From Escherichia coli (GTDB taxonomy: Bacteria; Pseudomonadota; Gammaproteobacteria; Enterobacterales; Enterobacteriaceae): a stretch of 64,000 nt of DNA. Numbering within the stretch: the first letter of the stretch is position 1; every line of letters begins with the position of its first letter. The stretch lies in the NCBI RefSeq assembly GCF_003334305.1, contig NZ_QOWS01000020.1. One strand, written 5' to 3'. Below, one piece after another: positions 7,131 through 32,994 of this stretch. The translations under genes were made by a program, and so were the position numbers. The notes under the pieces were generated by a model, which was not told where the DNA came from, searched no databases, and was given only the letters and a program-made list of their open reading frames with translations.

Positions 7131-8042
7131 ATGCAAAAGTTTGATACCAGGACCTTCCAGGGCTTGATCCTGACCTTACAGGATTACTGGGCTCGCCAGG
7201 GCTGCACCATTGTTCAACCATTGGACATGGAAGTCGGCGCGGGAACCTCTCACCCAATGACCTGTCTGCGCGCGCTGGGGCCAGAACCGATGGCGGCTGC
7301 TTATGTTCAGCCTTCTCGTCGCCCGACCGATGGTCGCTACGGCGAAAACCCCAACCGTTTACAGCACTACTATCAGTTTCAGGTGGTCATTAAGCCATCG
7401 CCGGACAATATTCAGGAGCTGTACCTCGGTTCTCTGAAAGAGCTGGGCATGGACCCGACTATTCACGACATCCGTTTCGTGGAAGATAACTGGGAAAACC
7501 CGACTCTGGGTGCCTGGGGACTGGGCTGGGAAGTGTGGCTAAACGGCATGGAAGTGACGCAGTTCACTTACTTCCAGCAGGTTGGTGGTCTGGAGTGTAA
7601 ACCGGTTACCGGCGAGATCACCTACGGTCTGGAACGTCTGGCCATGTACATTCAGGGCGTAGACAGCGTTTACGACCTGGTCTGGAGCGACGGCCCGCTG
7701 GGTAAAACCACCTACGGCGACGTGTTCCATCAGAACGAAGTGGAGCAGTCCACTTACAACTTCGAATACGCGGATGTGGACTTCCTGTTCACCTGCTTTG
7801 AGCAGTACGAGAAAGAAGCGCGGCAGCTGCTGGCGCTGGAAAATCCGCTGCCGCTGCCAGCCTACGAGCGTATTCTGAAAGCCGCCCACAGCTTCAACCT
7901 GCTGGATGCGCGTAAAGCCATCTCCGTCACCGAGCGTCAGCGCTACATTCTGCGCATTCGCACCCTGACCAAAGCAGTGGCAGAAGCATACTACGCTTCC
8001 CGTGAAGCCCTCGGCTTCCCGATGTGCAACAAAGATAAGTAA
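7131..8042 (+). CDS. glyQ: glycine--tRNA ligase alpha subunit (303 aa)
   Basis: [25 protein letters not shown]...; highly conserved GlyQ. Confidence 0.97.
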
Positions 8043-8051
8043 GAGGCGGCT

Positions 8052-10121
8052 ATGTCTGAGAAAACTTTTCTGGTGGAAATCGGCACTGAAGAGCTGCCAC
8101 CAAAAGCACTGCGCAGCCTGGCTGAGTCCTTTGCTGCGAATTTTACTGCGGAGCTGGATAACGCTGGCCTCGCACACGGCACCGTTCAATGGTTTGCTGC
8201 TCCGCGTCGTCTGGCGCTGAAAGTAGCTAACCTGGCGGAAGCGCAACCGGATCGTGAAATCGAAAAACGCGGCCCGGCGATTGCCCAGGCGTTCGACGCT
8301 GAAGGCAAACCGAGCAAAGCGGCAGAAGGTTGGGCGCGTGGTTGCGGTATTACCGTTGACCAGGCTGAGCGTCTGACTACCGATAAAGGCGAATGGCTGC
8401 TGTATCGCGCCCATGTGAAGGGCGAAAGCACCGAAGCACTGCTGCCGAATATGGTTGCGACTTCTCTGGCGAAACTGCCGATCCCGAAACTGATGCGTTG
8501 GGGCGCAAGCGACGTGCACTTCGTGCGTCCGGTGCACACCGTGACCCTGCTGCTGGGCGACAAAGTCATTCCGGCAACCATTCTGGGCATTCAGTCCGAT
8601 CGCGTGATTCGCGGCCACCGCTTTATGGGCGAACCGGAATTCACCATCGACAACGCCGATCAGTATCCGGAAATTCTGCGTGAGCGCGGGAAAGTCATCG
8701 CCGATTACGAAGAACGTAAAGCGAAGATTAAAGCCGATGCCGAAGAAGCAGCGCGTAAGATTGGCGGTAACGCTGACTTAAGCGAAAGCCTGCTGGAAGA
8801 AGTGGCTTCGCTGGTGGAGTGGCCGGTCGTTCTGACCGCAAAATTCGAAGAGAAATTCCTCGCGGTGCCGGCTGAAGCGCTGGTTTACACCATGAAAGGT
8901 GACCAGAAATACTTCCCGGTGTATGCGAACGACGGCAAACTGCTGCCGAACTTTATCTTCGTTGCCAACATCGAATCGAAAGATCCGCAGCAGATTATCT
9001 CCGGTAACGAGAAAGTCGTTCGTCCGCGTCTGGCGGATGCCGAGTTCTTCTTCAACACCGACCGTAAAAAACGTCTGGAAGATAACCTGCCGCGCCTGCA
9101 AACCGTGCTGTTCCAGCAACAGCTGGGTACGCTGCGTGACAAAACTGACCGCATCCAGGCGCTGGCTGGCTGGATTGCTGAACAGATTGGCGCTGACGTT
9201 AACCACGCAACCCGTGCGGGCCTGCTGTCTAAGTGTGACCTGATGACCAACATGGTCTTCGAGTTCACCGACACCCAGGGCGTTATGGGGATGCACTATG
9301 CGCGTCACGATGGCGAAGCGGAAGATGTCGCGGTGGCGCTGAATGAGCAGTATCAGCCGCGCTTTGCCGGTGATGACCTGCCGTCTAACCCGGTAGCCTG
9401 TGCGCTGGCGATTGCTGACAAGATGGATACTCTGGCGGGTATCTTCGGTATCGGCCAGCATCCGAAAGGCGACAAAGACCCGTTTGCGCTGCGTCGTGCC
9501 GCACTTGGCGTGCTGCGAATTATCGTTGAGAAGAACCTCAACCTTGATCTGCAAACGCTGACCGAAGAAGCGGTGCGTCTGTATGGCGATAAGCTGACTA
9601 ATGCCAACGTAGTTGATGATGTTATCGACTTTATGCTCGGTCGCTTCCGCGCCTGGTATCAGGACGAAGGTTATACCGTTGACACCATCCAGGCGGTACT
9701 GGCGCGTCGTCCGACTCGTCCGGCTGATTTCGATGCCCGTATGAAAGCGGTATCGCATTTCCGTACCCTGGATGCAGCTGCTGCACTGGCGGCGGCGAAC
9801 AAACGTGTATCTAACATTCTGGCGAAATCTGACGAAGTGCTGAGCGACCGCGTGAATGCCTCTACCCTGAAAGAGCCGGAAGAAATTAAACTGGCGATGC
9901 AGGTTGTGGTGCTACGTGACAAGCTGGAGCCGTACTTTGCGGAAGGTCGTTACCAGGATGCGCTGGTCGAACTGGCAGAGCTGCGTGAGCCGGTTGATGC
10001 TTTCTTCGATAAAGTGATGGTCATGGTTGATGACAAAGAATTGCGTCTCAACCGTCTGACCATGCTGGAGAAACTGCGCGAACTGTTCCTGCGCGTTGCG
10101 GATATTTCGCTGTTGCAGTAA
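8052..10121 (+). CDS. glyS: glycine--tRNA ligase beta subunit (689 aa)
   Basis: [20 protein letters not shown]...; 10 bp downstream of glyQ (glyQS operon). Confidence 0.97.
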
Positions 10122-10134
10122 TAACGCCGTTATT

Positions 10135-10166
10135 AAAAAGCCTGCCATCTGGCAGGCTTTTTTTAT
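10135..10166 (+). terminator. rho-independent terminator of glyQS
   Basis: AGCCTGCCATCTGGCAGGCT hairpin followed by TTTTTTT. Confidence 0.8.
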
Positions 10167-10352
10167 TATCGCTAAATAATACAGCAACCTTTAATAATCT
10201 TCTGCTGAATAAAGATTATCTCATATATTAATTTTATGAGGTTTTTTTAGGATTATATCAAGGAGAAGAAACAAACTTATTAAGCTAGAATAGCCACGGG
10301 TGCTTGAGACTGTTTGTCTCAGGTATTCACCGAAAGGCAGACAGAGAAAAGC

Positions 10353-10415
10353 CCCACCTGACTATAAATCAAAGTGAGGCTACCCTATGCCTGAACACCA
10401 TAAGGTTAGCCTCTT
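10353..10415 (-). ncRNA. sokA: candidate SokA antisense RNA (type I antitoxin), approximate bounds
   Basis: On the minus strand a 7-bp hairpin (GCCUCAC/GGUGGGGC) followed by UUUUCUCU lies just upstream of and overlapping the mok start, the position expected for Sok; the ends are inferred, not mapped. Confidence 0.35.
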
Positions 10416-10683
10416 ACTCGTTGGAAATCAACACAGGGGGCTGGGAATGCCGCAGAAATATAGATTACTTTCTTTAATAGTGATTTGTTTCACGCTTTTA
10501 TTTTTCACCTGGATGATAAGAGATTCACTGTGTGAATTGCATATTAAACAGGGGAGTTATGAGCTGGCGGCATTTTTAGCCTGCAATTTAAAAGAGTTAG
10601 AGTCTTCGGCGGGAAGTTATTCCCGCCTTTCTTACGGCGTTGCGCATTCTCATTGCACCCAAATTTATTTTTCACAAAAATAA
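10387..10683 (+). CDS. mokA: mokA-like reading frame (in-frame N-terminal extension of hok)
   Basis: ORF MPEHHKVSLLLVGNQHRGLG-MPQKYR... begins 20 codons upstream of and in frame with hok, as in chromosomal mok/hok pairs. Confidence 0.5.
   Translation: MPEHHKVSLLLVGNQHRGLGMPQKYRLLSLIVICFTLLFFTWMIRDSLCELHIKQGSYELAAFLACNLKELESSAGSYSRLSYGVAHSHCTQIYFSQK
10447..10683 (+). CDS. hokA: Hok-family type I toxin (HokA-like); frame runs 78 codons here against ~50 for canonical Hok
   Basis: MPQKYRLLSLIVICFTLLFFTWMIRDSLCELHIKQGSYELAAFLACNLKE... is a Hok family sequence; the codon after ...LKE is TTA rather than a stop and the frame continues to 10683. Confidence 0.7.
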   Translation: MPQKYRLLSLIVICFTLLFFTWMIRDSLCELHIKQGSYELAAFLACNLKELESSAGSYSRLSYGVAHSHCTQIYFSQK

Positions 10684-10724
10684 TACTAGATTTTATTACG
10701 CGATCGATTATTTATTTCCTGAAA

Positions 10725-10762
10725 AACAAATAAAAAAATCCCCGCCAAATGGCAGGGATCTT
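10725..10762 (-). terminator. rho-independent terminator of cspA
   Basis: Minus-strand hairpin ATCCCTGCCATTTGGCGGGAT followed by TTTTTTT downstream of the cspA stop. Confidence 0.8.
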
Positions 10763-10786
10763 AGATTCTGTGCTTTTAAGCAGAGA

Positions 10787-10999
10787 TTACAGGCTGGTTA
10801 CGTTACCAGCTGCCGGGCCTTTAGCGCCGCTTTCGATGGTGAAGGACACTTTCTGACCTTCGTCCAGAGATTTGTAACCATCGTTCTGGATAGCAGAGAA
10901 GTGTACGAACACGTCTTTAGAGCCATCGTCAGGAGTGATGAAGCCGAAGCCTTTGTCAGCGTTGAACCATTTTACGATACCAGTCATTTTACCGGACAT
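10787..10999 (-). CDS. cspA: major cold shock protein CspA (70 aa)
   Basis: [70 protein letters not shown]. Confidence 0.98.
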
Positions 11000-11225
11000 A
11001 GTGTATTACCTTTAATAATTAAGTGTGCCTTTCGGCGATATGGCGTGCTTTACAGATTTTGAAGCGTTAAAGGAATGTGCACTACGAGGGGTATCAACGA
11101 TAACTCTTGAAGGGACTTGCCTTACTACACTGCTTTAATGGTCTGTACGTCAAACCGTTGATGTGCATTAAGCCACGCATTGGCGGGTGATGCAACAATT
11201 ATTTTTCATATTTATGATTAATCGG
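11000..11225 (-). promoter_or_regulatory. cspA promoter and ~159-nt 5-prime UTR including the cold box
   Basis: Reverse complement of 11141-11158 gives ACGGTTTGACGTACAGAC (cspA mRNA 5-prime end / cold box); upstream minus-strand TTGCAT ... CTTAAT and an AT-rich UP-like region. Confidence 0.8.
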
Positions 11226-11279
11226 TTGGAAAACGGTCCTGTCATCAGGACCGTAAACAGCAATAAAGTGGATAAAAGT

Positions 11280-11570
11280 CTATTCCATCAACTGCTTACT
11301 TAATGCCGGGTTGGCTTGAATCAAACGCATCAATTTTAGTTCGGCACTTGAAGGCTTCACGCGTCTGGATTCCCATTCCTTTACCATGGCGACTGATACG
11401 CCCAAAACCCGGGCGAAATCATCGATTTTTAACCCTGTCCCTTTTCGTAACTGCTCAATTTCGGTACAGGACGTTGTTCTGTGCGTCAGGGTAATTTTCT
11501 GCGTTTCATCTTTAAAAACAATCTGTTCCAGGCTGCTCAACAGCTCATGCATTGGATCTTTATATTCCAT
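11280..11570 (-). CDS. yiaG: HTH (XRE-family) transcriptional regulator YiaG (96 aa)
   Basis: MEYKDPMHELLSSLEQ... with C-terminal HTH (DFARVLGVSVAMVKEWE); synteny. Confidence 0.85.
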   Translation of the reverse strand: MEYKDPMHELLSSLEQIVFKDETQKITLTHRTTSCTEIEQLRKGTGLKIDDFARVLGVSVAMVKEWESRRVKPSSAELKLMRLIQANPALSKQLME

Positions 11571-12003
11571 TGAAAACTCCTCAAATCACACTGCGGGATC
11601 GTGAATTGCATCGAAGCTCATTAAGAATAGTCGGGAAAAGCAGACACAGCGGGGTGAAGTCAGGGCATGCTCTGGCTATGATTCGATTCAGCCTGTCATT
11701 TAGCGTGACTTATAGCCACCTAACGATCTGATAAATGCCGATATATCTCTTACCACTCCTGTTTTGTAAAGATTTCGAAAATCTAACCTTCTGCGAAGGC
11801 GTAAATCTCTGGCTACAAAAAAGGCAACGGCACTATCATTTTTTAACAATGAAACAACAAATTAACCTTGTTTCATTTTCTCCATGATTTTACCAGGAAG
11901 ATTACGTAGAAAGGGTATCCTGCAAGCCTGTCCTGGACTATCCTTGTCACGTCAGACACGCGTGTGTCGTTGTGCGCTTTTTTTGGGTGAAAGGAGTAAG
12001 AAA

Positions 12004-12714
12004 ATGGCGACAGGAAAGTCCTGCTCTCGCTGGTTTGCGCCTCTTGCGGCGTTATTAATGGTAGTTAGCCTGAGTGGGTGTTTTGATAAAGAAGGCGATC
12101 AGCGTAAAGCGTTTATCGACTTCCTGCAGAATACAGTGATGCGTAGCGGTGAACGTCTACCAACCCTGACTGCCGATCAGAAAAAACAGTTTGGTCCTTT
12201 TGTCTCTGATTACGCGATTCTGTATGGTTATTCTCAGCAGGTGAATCAGGCGATGGATTCCGGTCTGCGCCCGGTCGTAGACAGCGTTAACGCAATTCGC
12301 GTACCGCAGGATTACGTTACGCAAAGCGGTCCGCTGCGTGAAATGAACGGTTCGCTGGGTGTGCTGGCGCAACAACTGCAAAATGCGAAGTTGCAGGCCG
12401 ATGCTGCGCACTCTGCGCTAAAACAGACCGATGATTTGAAACCGGTCTTTGATCAGGCATTCACCAAAGTGGTAACGACGCCAGCTGATGCATTGCAACC
12501 GTTGATTCCGGCTGCACAAACTTTCACGCAACAACTGGTGATGGTTGGAGACTACATTGCTCAGCAAGGTACTCAGGTGAGCTTTGTCGCAAATGGCATC
12601 CAGTTCCCGACTTCACAGCAGGCAAGTGAATATAACAAACTGATTGCGCCATTACCGGCACAACATCAGGCGTTTAATCAGGCCTGGACTACAGCAGTTA
12701 CTGCAACCCAATAA
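12004..12714 (+). CDS. yiaF: DUF3053 lipoprotein YiaF (236 aa)
   Basis: ATG at 12004 preceded by AAGGAG; MATGKSCSRWFAPLAALLMVVSLSGC lipoprotein signal; the track N-terminal extension is not used. Confidence 0.85.
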   Translation: MATGKSCSRWFAPLAALLMVVSLSGCFDKEGDQRKAFIDFLQNTVMRSGERLPTLTADQKKQFGPFVSDYAILYGYSQQVNQAMDSGLRPVVDSVNAIRVPQDYVTQSGPLREMNGSLGVLAQQLQNAKLQADAAHSALKQTDDLKPVFDQAFTKVVTTPADALQPLIPAAQTFTQQLVMVGDYIAQQGTQVSFVANGIQFPTSQQASEYNKLIAPLPAQHQAFNQAWTTAVTATQ

Positions 12715-12763
12715 AGAGTAAAAGCCCGAGCGATTATCGGGCTTTACTTCACGCAGTCGCGGC

Positions 12764-13738
12764 TTAGTCCGCGACGTGCGGATTCACACAGTTCTTCTCA
12801 ACCTTTCCTTGTAACGCATCAATCAAATTATCCACGGCACAGGCGGCCATGCCATAACGCGTCTCATGGGTGGCAGATCCAATATGCGGTACTGCGACGA
12901 CGTTGGCCATTGAGAGCAACGGCGAATCTACGGACAGTGGCTCTTGTTCGAAGACATCCAGCCCGGCGGCGTGAATTTCGCCTTTCTGCAATGCAGCAAT
13001 CAGTGCATTTTCATCAACCACCGGGCCACGTCCGGCATTAATGAAAATGGCGGAGGATTTCATTTTGGCGAATTGTTCTGCGCCAAACAGATGATGCGTC
13101 TCATCAGTTAACGGCAGGATCAGGCAAACGAAATCTGACTCTTGTAACAGAGTATCCAAATCGCAGTAGCGGGCGTTGAAGCGTTCTTCTGCTTCTTTAT
13201 GGTGGCGGCGCGCGTTATAGAGGATGGGCATGTTGAAGCCAAAGTGCGCACGTTGTGCCAGCGCCATACCGATCCGTCCCATCCCGACAATGCCCAGTGT
13301 TTTATGGTGAACGTCAGTGCCGTACCAGTCCGGGCCTATGCTCGCGGTCCATTCGCCTGCTTTTACCCGTTCTGCTACCTCCACAACCCGACGAGCGGTA
13401 GACAACACCAGCGCCATCAGCGTATCGGCGACGGTTTCTGTTAATACGGTTGGCGTGTGCATCAGCAGAATTTTTCGGGCGGTAAGCGCATCGACATCAA
13501 AATTGTCATAGCCGACGGAGATCGTTGATGTGGCACGCAGTTTCGGCATTTTTTCCAGCAATGCGGCATCAACATTCTCGTTTGAACCCAGTAAACCTTC
13601 AGCTTCGGCAAAAATTGCTGCATTTTGTTCGACGGTTTGTGGGCTGAGGTTTGCCACCTGGTGAACGGTGAAATGCTCTTGCAGGCGTTGCAGTAAATCA
13701 TCAGGTAAGGCTTTGTAGAGGATAACGGACGGCTTCAT
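12764..13738 (-). CDS. ghrB: glyoxylate/hydroxypyruvate reductase B (324 aa)
   Basis: [22 protein letters not shown]...; D-2-hydroxyacid dehydrogenase family with GxGxxG NAD-binding motif (GIVGMGRIG). Confidence 0.93.
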
Positions 13739-13841
13739 GCTTCTCTCCATTCACTGATAAGGCGATCACCTTAGCCTGAAATATGATGAAGGAAAACTGA
13801 AGAATGCCAGGTGATTTCTGCATCACCTGGCATGAAAGGGA

Positions 13842-14501
13842 TTACAGCGGGCTTAAGGTAATTTCTACACGGCGGTTTTGCGCCTTACCTTCTGCGGTGC
13901 TGTTGCTGGCGATTGGGTTAGCCGGGCCAAGGCCCTGAGTACGGATGCGGCTGGCGTCCACGCCCTGGGTGATCAACGCGCTGGCAACGGAATCCGCACG
14001 TTGCTGGGAGAGACGCATGTTCAGGTCGTGACCACCCGTGCTGTCGGTATAACCAATCACGTTAACCGCCGTTTTCGGATACTCTTTCAGCACCATTGCC
14101 ACGCCGGTCAGGGTGTTAGCGCCCGCAGGTTTCAGGGTCGCGCTGCTGCTGTCGAAGGTCACATTGTTCGGCATATTGAGGATAATGTTATCCCCGCTGC
14201 GGGTTACGCTAACACCAGTGCCGCGCATTTTGTCACGCAGCTTCGCTTCCTGCACATCCATGTAATAACCCACGCCGCCGCCCAGAGCTGCGCCTGCTGC
14301 TGCGCCAATCAGCGCGCCTTTACCGCGATCTTTCTTCGAAGAAGAGAGCGCACCAATACCCGCGCCCACGAGAGAGCCCAGACCTGCGCCGATAGCAGAT
14401 TTACCTGCTTCGCGTTCGCCGGTGTAAGGGTTAGTTGTGCAGCCAGATACCGCCAGAGCGCCACTCACTACGGCGGCAATAAGATAAACACGTTTCTTCA
14501 T
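13842..14501 (-). CDS. yiaD: OmpA-domain outer membrane lipoprotein YiaD (219 aa)
   Basis: Lipobox AVSGC, Gly-rich region, C-terminal OmpA-like peptidoglycan-binding domain. Confidence 0.9.
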   Translation of the reverse strand: MKKRVYLIAAVVSGALAVSGCTTNPYTGEREAGKSAIGAGLGSLVGAGIGALSSSKKDRGKGALIGAAAGAALGGGVGYYMDVQEAKLRDKMRGTGVSVTRSGDNIILNMPNNVTFDSSSATLKPAGANTLTGVAMVLKEYPKTAVNVIGYTDSTGGHDLNMRLSQQRADSVASALITQGVDASRIRTQGLGPANPIASNSTAEGKAQNRRVEITLSPL

Positions 14502-14653
14502 TGTTAATCCTTAATAACCTTTTTATTCTTTGCCACGGGTTCCGTGGCGGGAGATTATGCCGCGTGAACATGAAGATTATTCCTGGGAATACTCGGAAAT
14601 TTGTAAGTAATATTTAACTGCTCAATACATCTAACCTTTCAGGAGTTTTCGGT

Positions 14654-16987
14654 TTGGCCAACTCATCCTCACGATATTCCGTTCTGACTGCCGCCCATTG
14701 GGGGCCCATGCTGGTTGAAACCGACGGCGAAACCGTGTTTAGCTCGCATGGCGCGTTAGCCACAGGAATGGAAAACTCCTTGCAGAGCGCGGTTCGCGAC
14801 CAGGTTCACAGCAATACACGGGTACGATTTCCAATGGTGCGCAAAGGCTTTCTTGCGTCACCGGAAAATCCGCAAGGCATTCGTGGGCAGGATGAATTTG
14901 TTCGCGTGAGTTGGGATGAGGCGCTGGATCTTATTCACCAACAACATAAACGCATTCGTGAGGCTTATGGTCCGGCATCGATTTTTGCTGGTTCCTACGG
15001 CTGGCGTTCAAACGGCGTGCTGCATAAGGCCTCGACATTATTACAACGCTATATGGCGCTGGCAGGCGGTTATACCGGGCATCTGGGGGATTATTCGACC
15101 GGCGCGGCACAGGCGATCATGCCGTATGTCGTGGGTGGTAGCGAAGTTTATCAACAGCAAACCAGTTGGCCGCTGGTGCTGGAACATAGCGATGTCGTGG
15201 TGTTGTGGAGTGCTAACCCACTCAATACGCTGAAAATTGCGTGGAATGCATCTGATGAGCAGGGGCTTTCTTACTTTTCCGCACTGCGTGACAGCGGGAA
15301 AAAGCTGATCTGTATTGATCCAATGCGATCGGAAACCGTCGATTTCTTTGGCGATAAAATGGAGTGGGTGGCACCGCACATGGGCACCGATGTTGCGCTG
15401 ATGCTGGGGATCGCCCATACGCTGGTGGAAAATGGTTGGCACGACGAAGCGTTTCTGACGCGTTGCACCACAGGTTATGCCGTCTTCGCCTCTTATTTGC
15501 TGGGCGAGAGTGACGGAATAGCGAAAAACGCCGAATGGGCGGCAGAGATTTGTGGGGTTAACGCAGCGAAAATCCGCGAGCTGGCGGCTCTTTTCCACCA
15601 AAACACGACCATGCTGATGGCTGGCTGGGGAATGCAGCGCCAACAGTTTGGTGAGCAAAAACACTGGATGATCGTCACGCTGGCGGCAATGTTGGGGCAA
15701 ATCGGCACACCCGGCGGCGGTTTTGGTCTTTCTTATCATTTTGCCAATGGTGGTAACCCCACGCGGCGTTCTGCGGTGCTCTCTTCCATGCAGGGCAGCT
15801 TGCCGGGTGGCTGCGATGCGGTGGATAAAATCCCTGTTGCCCGCATTGTTGAAGCACTGGAAAACCCTGGTGGCGCATATCAACACAACGGTATGAACCG
15901 ACATTTCCCGGATATTCGTTTTATCTGGTGGGCGGGCGGTGCCAACTTTACTCATCATCAGGATACCAATCGTCTGATCCGTGCCTGGCAAAAACCGGAG
16001 CTGGTGGTGATCTCTGAATGCTTCTGGACGGCGGCGGCGAAACACGCGGATATCGTTCTGCCTGCGACTACCTCTTTTGAGCGTAATGATCTCACCATGA
16101 CCGGTGATTACAGTAATCAGCATCTGGTGCCGATGAAGCAAGTGGTGCCGCCACGCTATGAAGCGCGTAATGATTTTGATGTTTTTGCCGAGTTGAGTGA
16201 ACGTTGGGAGAAGGGCGGCTATGCGCGGTTTACGGAAGGAAAAAGTCAGCTGCAATGGCTGGAAACGTTTTATAACGTTGCCCGGCAGCGCGGGGCAAGC
16301 CAGCAGGTTGAATTGCCGCCATTTGCTGAGTTCTGGCAAGCCAACCAGTTAATTGAGATGCCGGAAAACCCGGACAGCGAGCGGTTTATTCGCTTCGCTG
16401 ATTTTTGCCGCGATCCGCTGGCGCATCCGTTAAAAACCGCCAGCGGCAAGATTGAAATCTTCTCACAGCGTATTGCCGATTACGGTTACCCGGATTGCCC
16501 TGGGCATCCAATGTGGCTGGAGCCGGACGAATGGCAGGGCAATGCCGAACCAGAACAGTTGCAGGTACTTTCTGCCCATCCGGCGCACCGCCTGCACAGC
16601 CAGCTGAATTACAGTTCTCTGCGCGAATTGTACGCGGTAGCAAACCGTGAGCCTGTCACCATTCATCCTGACGATGCTCAGGCGCGCGGCATAACCGAAG
16701 GGGATATGGTGCGGGTGTGGAACTCCCGTGGGCAGATCCTTGCCGGAGCGGTCATTAGCGAGGGAATTAAACCTGGCGTGATTTGCATTCACGAAGGGGC
16801 ATGGCCGGATCTGGATTTAACCGCTGACGGTATTTGTAAAAACGGCGCAGTGAACGTGCTGACCAAAGATCTCCCCAGCTCGCGGCTGGGGAATGGCTGT
16901 GCGGGTAATACGGCGCTGGCATGGCTGGAAAAATACAACGGTCCGGAACTGACACTTACAGCGTTTGAACCACCGGCCAGCTCATAA
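14654..16987 (+). CDS. bisC: biotin sulfoxide reductase, molybdopterin oxidoreductase (777 aa)
   Basis: [25 protein letters not shown]...; the track ORF begins with a TTG codon at 14654. Confidence 0.93.
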
Positions 16988-17396
16988 TCCAGGTGGGTAG
17001 TTGGGTTTCATCCTGCCATGCGCAATCGACAATGTGAAAACCCTGCGCACGGTAAAAATCTATCGCCGGTTGATTTTTTTGATAAACCTCCAGCATCAGA
17101 TGGGGATAGCGCTGCTGCACATACTGCATCAGCGCCTTACCAATACCGCGTCTGACGGCCTTCGGTGCGACAAACATTGCTGCCAGAAATCGGCCTTCCA
17201 TAATGCTGACAAAACCGAGAAGCTTACCGTCCTCTTCCCAGACCCAGTTTTGCGCGTTGGCAAGATAGGCATCCCGCACCAGCGGAATGCAGTCACGCCA
17301 GTAATTCGCTTTTATAAAGGGATGCCCCCAGGTTGTACTTTCCAGCCACAGTTCGAGGATCGCGGGGAGTTCTGAACGTTGCGCTTCCCGAATCAT
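16956..17396 (-). CDS. yiaC: GNAT-family N-acetyltransferase YiaC (146 aa)
   Basis: [17 protein letters not shown]... acetyltransferase fold; 3-prime end overlaps the bisC 3-prime end by 32 bp (convergent). Confidence 0.88.
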
Positions 17397-17956
17397 GGTT
17401 TATTTCCCGGATAGCAACAGCAGCCAACCACATGATCATTCACCAGCCCACATGCCTGCATAAAGGAGTAACAGATTGTGGTGCCGACAAACTTAAAACC
17501 ACGCTTTTTCAGGGCTTTAGATAGAGCGTCGGAGGCGGACGTAGATGTGGGAATTTCGCTCAACGTTGTGGCTTGTGTCACCTGTGGCTGATGATTTACA
17601 AACGACCAGACAAAGTCGGCAAACGGTTCGCCGTTCTGTTCCATTTGCAGGTACGCCCGCGCATTACCAATAATTGCCTGAATTTTCCCTCGATGGCGGA
17701 TAATCCCGGCGTCCTGTACCAGTCTTTCGACATCCTCTTCCTGCATTGCTGCGACCTTCACCGGATCGAACTGATGAAAGCAGGCGCGATAGTTTTCGCG
17801 TTTTTTGAGGACGGTGATCCACGATAACCCAGCCTGCTGCCCTTCAAGGCAGATCATTTCGAACAGTTTTTTACTGTCAGTTTCAGGCACGCCCCATTCA
17901 TTATCATGGTAGGCAATATAAAGCGGGTCCTGACTCACCCAGCCGCAACGTTCCAT
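17393..17956 (-). CDS. tag: DNA-3-methyladenine glycosylase I (187 aa)
   Basis: Track ORF trimmed to MERCGWVSQDPLYIAYHDNEWGVPE...; stop overlaps the yiaC start (4-bp overlap). Confidence 0.95.
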   Translation of the reverse strand: MERCGWVSQDPLYIAYHDNEWGVPETDSKKLFEMICLEGQQAGLSWITVLKKRENYRACFHQFDPVKVAAMQEEDVERLVQDAGIIRHRGKIQAIIGNARAYLQMEQNGEPFADFVWSFVNHQPQVTQATTLSEIPTSTSASDALSKALKKRGFKFVGTTICYSFMQACGLVNDHVVGCCCYPGNKP

Positions 17957-22355: not shown

Positions 22356-22432
<77 letters not shown>

Positions 22433-22519: not shown

Positions 22520-22615
22520 GACGTAGGCCTGATAAGACGCGTCAGCGTCGCATCAGGCAACGGCACCGCACTTATTGTCGGATGCGGCGTGAACGCCTTA
22601 TTCGACCTACACGCC
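22520..22615. repeat. REP / BIME-type palindromic units
   Basis: GCCTGATAAGACGCG...CGCATCAGGC and CGGATGCGGCGTGAACGCCTTAT units typical of E. coli REP elements. Confidence 0.7.
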
Positions 22616-30162: not shown

Positions 30163-30520
30163 AAAGTCCTGTCCAGAAAGAAGTCGGCCTCGCAAAAATG
30201 AATAAACCCAGATTCTCTTGCGCAACAGGTGGAGAAGTCGAATACGCAGTATGTAAAAAATGAGGCAACAGATTCACTGGGGAGGTCGCGAGGAGGCGCA
30301 ATTCTACAAAATTGCGCATTTCACTACCAGTCTGGAGTCAGCCCGGATATGAACTGCAACTATTGCAAATTAAGAAATTAAGCTGGAAGGCATCACGCAA
30401 TGAGGAAGATTGCCGGGTGCTGACAGTAAAAAGCAATCGTAAAATCAGCGGCAAGCCGGAAGGGTTCCGGTGAGGCGCAATGTTGCGGGGGCTTTATCCC
30501 TGGTGGCATTGGTTGCTGGA

Positions 30521-30584
30521 GAGAGAAAACCCCCGCACGTTGCAGGTATGCACCTGACAACATAACGGGGGCTAATCTTGAACC
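30521..30584 (-). ncRNA. rdlD: Rdl antisense RNA (antitoxin), copy 1
   Basis: Minus-strand sequence GGUUCAAGAUUAGCCCCCGUUAUGUUGUCAGGUGCAUACCUGCAACGUGCGGGGGUUUUCUCUC ends in a GC hairpin plus U-run and matches the Rdl family as I recall it; ends approximate. Confidence 0.6.
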
Positions 30585-30637
30585 TAAACAACTCAAGAAT
30601 AGCCGCGAAACGTTGTCATTACAACACAGGCGGCTAT

Positions 30638-30745
30638 ATGACGCTCGCAGAGCTGGGCATGGCCTTCTGGCATGATTTAGCGGCTCCGGTCATTGCTGGC
30701 ATTCTTGCCAGTATGATCGTGAACTGGCTGAACAAGCGGAAGTAA
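30638..30745 (+). CDS. ldrD: Ldr small toxic peptide (35 aa), copy 1
   Basis: ATG at 30638; MTLAELGMAFWHDLAAPVIAGILASMIVNWLNKRK, Ldr family; not in the supplied ORF track (below its length cutoff). Confidence 0.85.
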   Translation: MTLAELGMAFWHDLAAPVIAGILASMIVNWLNKRK

Positions 30746-30794
30746 CGTGTCATGCGGGCGTCAGGCTGCCGTAATGGCAATTTGCGCCCGGACC

Positions 30795-30827
30795 AGGCCG
30801 CAGGGGTGAAACTCTGCGGCCTTTTTC
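30795..30827 (+). terminator. rho-independent terminator of ldr copy 1
   Basis: AGGCCGCAGGGGTGAAACTCTGCGGCCT hairpin followed by TTTTT. Confidence 0.8.
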
Positions 30828-31003
30828 GTAAGAAAAATGCAACGGTTGCAAGCGGATAATATTCTGCGGAATGCGCAGCACAGAGTGAGTAAGTGATGGA
30901 TTTCGGAACAGAAAAACAGTCGTAGAATCAGCGGCAAGCCGGAAAGGTTCCGGTAAGGCGCAATGTTGCGGGGGCTTTATCCCTGGTGGCATTGGTTGCT
31001 GGA

Positions 31004-31067
31004 GAGAGAAAACCCCCGCACGTTGCAGGTATGCACCTGACAACATAACGGGGGCTAATCTTGAACC
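31004..31067 (-). ncRNA. Rdl antisense RNA, copy 2
   Basis: Identical to copy 1 over this segment. Confidence 0.6.
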
Positions 31068-31120
31068 TAAACAACTCAAGAATAGCCGCGAAACGTTGTC
31101 ATTACAACACAGGCGGCTAT

Positions 31121-31228
31121 ATGACGCTCGCAGAGCTGGGCATGGCCTTCTGGCATGATTTAGCGGCTCCGGTCATTGCTGGCATTCTTGCCAGTATGAT
31201 CGTGAACTGGCTGAACAAGCGGAAGTAA
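31121..31228 (+). CDS. Ldr small toxic peptide (35 aa), copy 2
   Basis: ATG at 31121; identical predicted peptide to copy 1. Confidence 0.85.
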   Translation: MTLAELGMAFWHDLAAPVIAGILASMIVNWLNKRK

Positions 31229-31314: not shown

Positions 31315-32994
31315 TTACTGCGGGTAAGGCACCCAGTCGCCGCCGTTCAGGCGAACGTACGGTTTATCCTGGTATTGAATAACTACTGCATTTGAGTTCT
31401 CGGAGACCGGTGCTGTTTGTGGCAACCCACTGGTGAGTTTTTTCCAGTCAACATTGTCTTCGGTGAAAATCTTGCCATCAAGAACGCGAACCACCAGATC
31501 GGAGATAGCCAGGAAGCTGCTCGGTTGGTCAATGACAATCGGTGCCCCCTGATGTGGTGCCTTCATGCCGAAGAATTTCACCCCAACGGGGACGTCTGTG
31601 ATAGACGGGCTAGGGATATCACGTAGGCCAGATACCTGCATTCTGTCGCCCTTCAGCGCGCCGCCGTGTTCCGGCACCACGACCACCATCACTTTACGAC
31701 CCGATTTCTCCAGTTCAGTAAAGAAGGCGTCCAGTTCATCAAAGAATTTCTGCGCCCGCGCTTTGTAATCCGCTGTTTTGCTGACCCCCGGATAATGGTT
31801 GCCGTCATGCAGTGGAAGCGTGTTGTAGAACGTGGCACTACGGCTATTTTTATCTTTTTCGGTAACGTCCAGCCAGCGGTTAAGCACGGCGGTATCGTCA
31901 TAAACCGGCGAACCATCAAAGCCCAGCAAAATAACCGGCAGATTTGTTTGATCCATCAATTCAGTCTGCATGCCGCCATTTTCGCGAACTTCTTTCAAAA
32001 AACCGCCGAACTGGCCGTTATGCCCCATCATCAGGTGCTGGGTAAAGCCCAGTTTCGAAAGGTTATCAAACAGATAGCAGTCGTTATTTGCCGGTTGATA
32101 CAGATTAGTGTGCGAAGTCTGCCCGCAGCTGGCGCGCAGTAAACGGATCGCCGCCGGGCCACTGTAGGAGGTGGCGGAGTTAAAGTTCTTGAACTCAATA
32201 TCGAAATGCGACCACAGTGGATGCGACATCAACCCGGCGGCTTCTATATCCGACCAGGAAAGCGAACAGATGTTAATCACCAGTAGTTCAAATGGCTGAG
32301 CATCAGCGGGCAGCGAAGACGGGAAGGTCGATTTACGTTTCGCCTCCGCGTTATAGAAATTATTCAGCCAGGCGTTAAGGTTCGCCGTTGTTGGCGGTGC
32401 AGTTTGTGCGGGCATATCACCCACTACCGGTGCGCCACCCGTCGCCGCAACGGTTGCCGCTGCGTTACCACCCGTCGTTGTTACAGTGGTCGTCGGTTGT
32501 CCGGCTGGCCACAAGGAGAAACTTGGTCCCGCCAGGGTAAGTACGCTCAGCCATAGCAGTATGGCAACCACAAAAACGGTAATGCGAATCCATTGTGACA
32601 GGAATAACCAGGCCACTAATAAAACAAAAATGGCCCCAATCATCTGCCAGTTAATAAAGCGTGTGACAAGGTCGATTAAATAATCGGTACTGAACCCCGC
32701 CACCTGCGAACCCTGGCTCATTATGCTTTCCGGGCCAGGCAACCAGGTGTCATGCCAGAACAAAGCAAAGCCGATCGGCAGGGCAATCCAGTGGCGCAAG
32801 CGATGCAGGCTGTAGCGCGGAATGGGCATCAGCAGAAACGCGGCAAACACCAAATTGAGGAGCGGATGGAAGTTAAGATATCCCGCCCACAACAGGCCGA
32901 ACTTAACCAGAAAATAGAAGTTCCAGCCGGAAAGGCCGCGCCAGTATTGCCAGAGGGAAGAAGGCATGGCGGTATTTTGTGTAAATTGAGTCAT
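31315..32994 (-). CDS. bcsG: cellulose biosynthesis protein BcsG (559 aa)
   Basis: [42 protein letters not shown]...; N-terminal TM segments, Thr/Gly-rich linker, alkaline-phosphatase-like C-terminal domain. Confidence 0.93.

Follow-up and report, generated by a model that had tools for sequence, protein, structure and literature searches.

A naturally occurring stop-loss allele of Escherichia coli hokA with probable loss or attenuation of toxicity

In the stretch of Escherichia coli DNA analysed here (64,000 nucleotides of contig NZ_QOWS01000020.1, assembly GCF_003334305.1, as a whole called the window), the toxin gene hokA runs on past the point where its stop codon is expected. The question is whether this frame encodes an inactivated toxin, an altered one, or whether it reflects a sequencing error. 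We found that the readthrough is real: it belongs to a common stop-loss allele, already catalogued, in a known toxin gene. In our reading this allele is a segregating variant that arose once and most likely has lost its toxicity or had it strongly attenuated, to which we give a probability of about 75%.

Loss of the hokA stop codon

The hokA ATG lies at 10447-10449 on the plus strand, and residues 1-50 (MPQKYRLLSLIVICFTLLFFTWMIRDSLCELHIKQGSYELAAFLACNLKE), ending in ...AAFLACNLKE, are given by the sequence and the list of open reading frames. Codon 51 (10597-10599) is TTA where the stop is expected, with the derived base T at 10598. As the initial annotation had described, the frame goes on through the hairpin region that follows: 28 extra codons (LESSAGSYSRLSYGVAHSHCTQIYFSQK) lead to a TAA at 10681-10683, so that the product is 78 aa long from the hokA ATG and 98 aa long from the in-frame mokA ATG at 10387. 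The coding features are:

10447-10683, plus strand: hokA frame as present, 78 aa; residues 1-50 are HokA, residues 51-78 are translated 3' UTR; same protein as ADT77169.1 of E. coli W
10597-10599, plus strand: former hokA stop codon, now TTA, from the alignment with 14EC029, CFT073 and K-12
10387-10683, plus strand: mokA frame from the list of open reading frames, in frame with hokA and extended to 98 aa versus 70 aa

The layout of mokA and hokA is like that of K-12, where MokC is an in-frame N-terminal extension of HokC. Both the 70-aa and the 98-aa Mok-start forms are present in public collections, and the ancestral 70-aa form is named 'protein HokA' there.

The locus had been recognised from its letters as hokA/mokA/sokA, and the profile searches agree. 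Rfam RF01794 'sok' matches the plus strand at 10298-10449 over the full length of the model with 124.9 bits (gathering score 59). The NCBIfam HokA equivalog NF007290 scores 130 bits on residues 1-50 (cut-off 89; the 50-aa form scores 131.9), and Pfam PF01848 HOK_GEF matches residues 5-46 with E = 3.9e-23. By its domain and by an equivalog score above the curated cut-off the product is therefore a member of the Hok/Gef family. By size it is not a typical one, as Hok/Gef proteins have about 50 aa and end right after the periplasmic domain, while this ORF has 78 aa. Pfam and NCBIfam searches gave no family match for tail residues 51-78, and the 28-residue tail is mildly polar (mean hydropathy -0.4).

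In the window, the locus is flanked by glyS (8052-10121, plus strand) and by cspA (10787-10999, minus strand), followed by yiaG. No IS element was found between glyS and cspA, in line with the initial annotation, and 10130-10790 is collinear with uninterrupted loci.

The initial annotation had proposed a TAA-to-TTA change and an alignment with other hokA loci as the way to check it. In a five-way alignment, the sole difference in 541 nt between the window and 14EC029, which has the intact 50-aa HokA (WP_001135738.1), is A to T at 10598, the very position that had been named. The window is identical to strain 504838 across the same 541 nt. Codon 51 is TAA in 14EC029, CFT073 and K-12; a single A to T transversion at 10598 has thus turned the hokA stop TAA into TTA (Leu).

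Normal hokA loci (14EC029 and E. coli C) are like the window in their position between glyS and cspA and in the leader, sokA, mokA, 3' stem-loop and fbi element. They differ in having the stop TAA and a HokA of 50 aa, as against TTA, a HokA of 78 aa, a MokA of 98 aa and a pseudogene flag in the window allele. In every carrier whose annotation was read, NCBI PGAP calls hokA a pseudogene, 'incomplete ... missing C-terminus', because the stop at 10597-10599 is lost and the ORF runs for 78 aa to the next stop at 10681-10683.

Distribution and origin of the TTA allele

The exact 61-mer with TTA, centred on 10598, is present in 141 of 5,426 complete E. coli genomes (2.6%). Its carriers include E. 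coli W, KO11FL, LY180, ETEC, STEC and isolates of dogs, horses, cattle, echidna and spinach, and they come from many hosts, countries and different laboratories. The exact 78-aa protein was found on 86 contigs and is public as ADT77169.1 of E. coli W under the name 'toxic polypeptide, small', and the 98-aa Mok-start product is encoded on at least 1000 public contigs.

These counts bear on the suggestion that T10598 might be a sequencing or assembly error. The change is a single-base difference from the commonest allele, as such an error would be. However, the identical sequence occurs in 141 complete genomes, E. coli W and its derivatives among them, the 98-aa product occurs on at least 1000 contigs, and T10598 is linked to a specific local haplotype. 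The counts in independent genomes together with this linkage rule the error out, and we give it a negligible probability.

For the origin of the allele we used an alignment of about 17 kb around the locus, in which the window and six further TTA genomes were set against five TAA genomes belonging to the same general type. The O111:H8 comparator was disregarded in the haplotype comparison because an inversion inflated its distances. A haplotype of informative sites from about 7379 to 12119 is common to 7/7 TTA sequences, and beyond this block the TTA strains are mosaic, which fits one mutation followed by descent and recombination. The TAA strain mip270_05 has the same haplotype with the ancestral A at 10598. 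In this sample of 7 out of 141 or more carriers, the data suggest a single origin of the TTA allele on one local haplotype, which is common in phylogroup-B1-like strains. Recurrent mutation to TTA found no support, as all seven sampled carriers have the one local haplotype.

RNA elements of the locus

The elements assigned around the coding frame are:

10286-10291, plus strand: putative -10 box TAGAAT of the hokA/mokA promoter, 6 nt ahead of the 5' end of the mRNA, assigned by analogy with the TATAAT that precedes GGGTGC at K-12 hokC
10298-10449, plus strand: hok mRNA leader, through the hokA ATG; RF01794 model positions 1-157, the full model; it includes the Sok-target hairpin
10298-10309, plus strand: tac
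10349-10355, plus strand: ucb/anti-SD
10376-10379, plus strand: mokA SD GAGG
10387-10389, plus strand: mokA ATG
10342-10396, minus strand: sokA antisense RNA of about 55 nt, aligned to the annotated SokC, SokB and SokE RNAs of MG1655
10403-10408, minus strand: putative sokA promoter -10 TAACCT
10426-10431, minus strand: putative sokA promoter -35 TTGATT; both hexamers chosen by eye, with a 17-nt spacer
10608-10627, plus strand: GC-rich stem-loop GGCGGGAAGTTATTCCCGCC of 8 bp, 6 of them G-C, from a terminator-like match and folds; codons 54-61 of the extended ORF
10648-10660, plus strand: candidate fbi element UCUCAUUGCACCC, which in predicted folds pairs with tac (10298-10309) at the 5' end of the mRNA; codons 68-72 of the extended ORF
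10735-10762, minus strand: cspA terminator hairpin from the terminator scan, at the end of the Rfam cspA match 10732-11159

SokA starts at its 5' end with GTTCAGG, which compares with GTTCAGC for SokC. A consensus promoter scan flagged neither the hokA nor the sokA promoter. By analogy, the stem-loop at 10608-10627 is homologous to the stem at the end of the 3'-processed, translatable hok mRNA. No other hairpin with a T-run was seen in the terminator scan or the folds between the fbi element and the cspA terminator, and the full-length hokA transcript possibly has its distal 3' end at this terminator as well.

Folding of the mRNA had been proposed as a check for the tac and fbi elements. In the predicted folds of RNAs 10298-10672 and 10298-10770, 10298-10309 pairs with 10648-10660 (tac/fbi), and it does so with both alleles. 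In the RNA ending after the hairpin, tac (10298-10305) is predicted to pair with ucb (10349-10355) while the stem-loop 10608-10627 is retained. The predicted folds would thus reproduce the hok paradigm, with tac/ucb pairing in the short RNA and tac/fbi pairing in RNA that extends past 10660.

In sequence and predicted folds the locus has the hok/sok architecture, with the leader elements, the overlapping mok, the antisense Sok gene, the 3' stem-loop and the fbi element. Apart from the stop codon, no second lesion was found among the elements examined. Judged by sequence it is a hokA/mokA/sokA locus with the rest of its elements intact and no IS.

IS150 and other lesions of hokA

The initial annotation had treated the locus as out of the ordinary, both for the absence of IS150 and for the readthrough, and had said that natural hokA alleles without a stop at this position would speak against it. 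Such alleles do exist, as the carriers above show. The absence of IS150 is ordinary since the hokA locus is uninterrupted in 2831/5426 genomes (52%) and interrupted in 48%. For K-12, IS150 had been placed just downstream of hokA. It is indeed at hokA, but on the 5' side of the ORF, where it takes the place of window positions 10376-10414 and thereby of the ribosome-binding site and ATG of mokA together with part of the Sok target. The downstream IS that was meant may be IS186, copies of which adjoin the hok ORFs downstream at K-12 hokC and hokE, inside their 3' hairpins.

In E. coli W, D6, E189 and one ST131 strain, IS150 is inserted the other way round, always at the same site, where AAG at 10372-10374 is duplicated. 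For K-12, W and ST131 the IS150 junctions fall at 10372-10376 and 10414/10415; both sites are intact in the window, which does not belong to the K-12-type class of IS150-disrupted hokA. IS150 and TTA occur together in 3/7 sampled TTA strains, and the locus is otherwise free of lesions in 4/7, the window included; A28 and 504838 are examples of TTA strains that lack IS150. At K-12 hokA (IS150), hokC and hokE (both IS186), natural inactivation also leaves the 50 Hok codons intact; there the lesions are IS elements, whereas the window has a stop-codon point mutation and no IS.

The same stop codon has been lost a second time. In EAB1119172.1 (78 aa, ...KLKEQESSAGNYSRLTYGV...) TAA has changed to CAA, on a K-12/CFT073-like haplotype and on 46 draft contigs. 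The codon is the same as in the window and so is the 28-codon readthrough to the same TAA, while the base and the haplotype differ and the allele is rare: on the K-12 haplotype it has 0 exact matches in the 5426 complete genomes and was seen in draft contigs only. Two stop losses through different bases suggest that their shared target was the stop codon itself. Truncated or nonsense HokA forms are found in public collections as well, namely a 43-aa form (155 contigs) and a 45-aa form (202 contigs).

The TTA allele is a further example of the known decay of chromosomal hok loci. Taken alone it matters little, as it is already public (ADT77169.1, E. coli W) and flagged as a pseudogene by the pipeline, and the effect of stop loss in hok is known from experiments on the R1 paralogue. 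Its value as a clean natural example of chromosomal hok decay is modest. It also calls for caution, since in strains such as E. coli W, and in about 2.6% of complete genomes, hokA ought not to be scored as an intact toxin.

A predicted long-range helix and the antisense ORF ysaE

The changed base also lies in two other features:

10411-10419, plus strand: 5' arm CUCUUACUC of a long-range helix in predicted folds; the 3' arm is 10594-10602 (GAGUAAGAG in the ancestral allele)
10597-10647, minus strand: antisense small ORF homologous to ysaE, 16 aa; the T10598 change reads TAA on the minus strand

The 5' arm follows closely on the 3' side of the Sok-target hairpin. When the ancestral allele is folded, the helix is predicted to have 9 bp with A10598 and U10415 as its central pair, which T10598 would turn into a U.U mismatch. 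The mismatch is predicted to cost +3.9 kcal/mol when the RNA is full-length and +1.2 when it is truncated, and the helix is gone from the predicted fold of the truncated TTA RNA. Equivalent complementarity, with partly different sequences, is present in hokB (CUCUUACC/GGUAAGGG), hokC (CUCUUACU/AGUAAGAG), hokE (CUUCUUCG/CGAAGAAG) and R1 hok (CUUACC/GGUAAG). The helix appears in the predicted folds of ancestral hokA, hokB and R1 and is absent from those of K-12 hokC and hokE, whose 3' ends are cut by IS186. Because the predicted folds are inconsistent across the paralogues, we treat the helix as suggestive only.

On the opposite strand, translation of the ysaE homologue gives 16 aa for the window as against 19 aa for 14EC029, while K-12 and CFT073 both have 23 aa. 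In K-12, ysaE is among the experimentally verified novel E. coli small ORFs (PMC8921622). We found no evidence that the effect on the helix or on ysaE is selected.

Likely effect on the toxin

Of the three options that the initial annotation had listed, the inactivated toxin is most likely the right one, by analogy with R1 hok. In a saturation suppressor screen of R1 hok (FASTBAC-Seq), six substitutions that destroy the stop codon turned up among the loss-of-toxicity mutants, with a protein 17 aa longer, and a C-terminal FLAG tag of 8 aa already abolishes R1 Hok toxicity (PMC9841398). In the same system, the processed translatable mRNA has the GC stem right behind the stop codon as its 3' terminal stem, and this mRNA is lost when the stem is weakened (PMC9841398).

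When we recomputed the R1 layout, on a sequence with 100% identity to many plasmids, the stop fell at 330-332, followed by the stem (342-359), the readthrough stop (381-383) and fbi (389-396). The layout of hokA is similar, with the lost stop at 10597-10599, the stem at 10608-10627 and the next stop at 10681-10683. Like the window allele, the R1 stop-loss mutants (PMC9841398) have a single stop-codon substitution and readthrough through the terminal stem-loop to a next stop beyond the stem. The R1 mutants are laboratory products, picked for their loss of toxicity, whereas the window allele is a natural polymorphism. The readthrough tail has 17 aa in R1 and 28 aa in the window, with unrelated sequences, and the extended frame crosses fbi in hokA while in R1 it stops just before it.

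The loss of toxicity could arise in three steps. The change would add a 28-residue polar extension to the periplasmic C-terminus of Hok, and in R1 additions of 8 or 17 residues abolish toxicity. By homology with R1, the processed translatable hokA mRNA would end near 10628 without an in-frame stop. If hokA mRNA is processed as in R1, the sole translatable species would therefore have no stop in frame and ribosomes would run to its 3' end. Ribosomes that reach a stop-less 3' end are the classic substrate of tmRNA tagging and non-stop mRNA decay (PMC3949413), and the non-stop product would be expected to be tagged by tmRNA and degraded, while the ribosomes would unwind the protective stem. Such a non-stop processed mRNA might also explain why hok stop-loss mutants are not toxic; among the papers listed by a literature search on hok mRNA with tmRNA or non-stop, none used the term 'hok mRNA'. 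The same base would, in the predicted folds, disrupt the central pair of the long-range helix that joins the stop-codon region to the CUCUUAC box in mok.

Several points speak against inactivation. The evidence for loss of toxicity comes from R1 Hok, a paralogue with a different tail, and the non-stop argument for hokA likewise draws on R1 homology. The transmembrane segment and the cysteine-containing periplasmic core are unchanged, and 4/7 carriers are otherwise free of lesions, where more damage might be expected in a long-dead gene. Unlike in R1, no terminator hairpin follows closely after the hokA fbi element; the first one to be met is the cspA terminator, at a distance of about 80 nt.

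The 78-aa HokA might accordingly still be a working membrane toxin, perhaps altered or weaker, and thus a functional variant and not a pseudogene. Residues 1-50 are a full HokA equivalog with nearly the score of the 50-aa form, all the regulatory RNA elements in the window are intact, and the allele persists across diverse lineages with many carriers lacking a second lesion. Hok also tolerates change, as alanine swaps of conserved residues keep its toxicity (bioRxiv 10.1101/2025.08.07.668861). We still consider a working toxin unlikely: R1 Hok loses its toxicity both with the 8-aa tag and with the 17-aa readthrough tail (PMC9841398), the tail of HokA is untranslated-region sequence without a family match, the processed mRNA probably has no stop codon, and IS150 has also entered the leader of 3/7 carriers, as expected once constraint is gone. 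There is a very slim chance that the allele is a regulated variant and not a dead gene, with Hok synthesis ending on the stop-less processed mRNA so that the toxin is made only in a tmRNA-tagged, rapidly degraded or attenuated form, or with readthrough of the 3' stem and fbi altering mRNA processing. If this were true, toxin activity in a B1 sublineage would depend on the state of ribosome rescue and proteolysis.

It is also conceivable that the base change matters, or is selected, at the RNA level or on the opposite strand, through a weaker helix and an altered switch from closed to open mRNA folds or through truncation of YsaE, and that the protein extension is incidental. The central position of the A10598-U10415 pair in the predicted 9-bp helix, the cost of 3.9 kcal/mol in the full-length mutant RNA with loss of the helix from the truncated predicted fold, the matching complementarity in hokB, hokC, hokE and R1 hok despite different sequences, and the minus-strand TAA that cuts the ysaE homologue from 19 to 16 aa are all consistent with this. 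We nevertheless find it quite improbable. There is no sign of selection for an allele of apparently single origin in 2.6% of complete genomes, normal alleles already differ from one another at the C-terminus of YsaE (19 to 23 aa), the helix is predicted only and inconsistent across paralogues, and the independent TAA to CAA change hits another base of the same codon. Loss or strong attenuation of toxicity through the lost stop codon remains the reading that we prefer.

Chromosomal hok loci are known to be often inactive. As a recent preprint summarises, the intact hokA (E. coli C), hokB and hokC loci give no post-segregational killing, while the HokA ORF is toxic upon overexpression (bioRxiv 10.1101/2025.08.07.668861). 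The 78-aa sequence was not found in the available supplements of this preprint on Hok diversity. The ancestral 50-aa ORF is there in its exact form, as the cloned construct 93_1386 (bioRxiv 10.1101/2025.08.07.668861), and this construct is not one of the three homologues that the preprint reports as non-toxic.

Insertion sequences and natural lesions at hok loci

The hokA locus is interrupted in about 48% of complete genomes, and one insertion site recurs.

10372-10374 (window numbering): IS150 insertion site with an AAG target duplication, directly 5' of the mokA ribosome-binding site

IS150 occupies this site in the same orientation in E. coli W, D6 and E189 and in an ST131 strain. The local haplotype of W, D6 and E189 is that of the window, while the hokA sequence of the ST131 strain is CFT073-like. 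The sharing of one site across haplotypes would fit a hot spot for insertion, or else a single old event that recombination has since spread. In K-12, by contrast, IS150 is inverted relative to these copies and is accompanied by a 39-bp deletion (10376-10414).

HokA carries other natural lesions as well. The lesion forms were drawn from public protein clusters (P0003, P0023, P0024 and P0032), and they include a second kind of stop loss, TAA to CAA, which gives 78 aa (46 contigs), a nonsense form of 43 aa (155 contigs) and a 45-aa form with an altered N-terminus (202 contigs). A 42-aa form is present among these clusters as well.

At two other K-12 loci, hokC (MG1655 16300-17500) and hokE (MG1655 607000-608600), the hok stop codon is followed by a GC stem-loop whose first half adjoins the ends of IS186, and the junction reads GGCGGGGAGTGATCCC followed by CATAAGCGC... 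Insertion at this point therefore deprives the locus of its protective 3' stem and of all sequence further downstream, any fbi element included.

A possible RNA-structure constraint and antisense frames at the hok 3' end

In hokA, positions 10411-10419, a CUCUUAC box just 3' of the Sok-target hairpin, are complementary to the stop-codon region (10594-10602). This complementarity is kept in hokA, hokB, hokC, hokE and the hok gene of plasmid R1, with sequences that partly differ. Since it is kept across the hok loci, the stop-codon region may be under an RNA-structure constraint on top of the coding constraint.

The same region carries a small frame on the other strand.

10597-10647, minus: homologue of ysaE, a small protein gene of K-12, antisense to the hokA 3' end

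YsaE varies in length, with 23 aa in K-12 and CFT073 and 19 aa in the B1 allele closest to that of the window. It has only 16 aa in the window because T10598, the substitution that removes the hokA stop, reads TAA on the minus strand. The hokB 3' end of MG1655 also has an antisense small ORF, yncP (577-645 of the hokB region).

Neighbouring genes and other features of the window

PGAP mostly names WP_000014594.1 (10787-10999, minus) cspE, and in a few genomes it uses cspA (annotations of L001-L019). On sequence grounds the gene is identified as cspA, because the RNA flanking it is a full-length match to the Rfam cspA thermoregulator (10732-11159, 501 bits). In the O111:H8 strain SF26 102-1 the yiaF-ghrB-yiaD segment (locus 11433-16558) is inverted relative to the window, and bisC is thereby broken into two pseudogene fragments.

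22356-22432, plus: tRNA-Pro (CGG)
22526-22607, minus: naRNA4 match (REP-derived nucleoid-associated RNA family, 72 bits), after the tRNA-Pro

An ldr/rdl type I toxin-antitoxin unit is present as two tandem copies (30429-31211) that lie 483 bp apart and are 98% identical.

30524-30589 and 31007-31072, minus: rdlD copies
ends at 30745 and 31228, plus: Ldr ORFs, both encoding the same 35-aa Ldr peptide

The pair adjoins a 559-aa ORF (31315-32994), which we take to be bcsG. At this position K-12 presumably has one ldrD/rdlD only.
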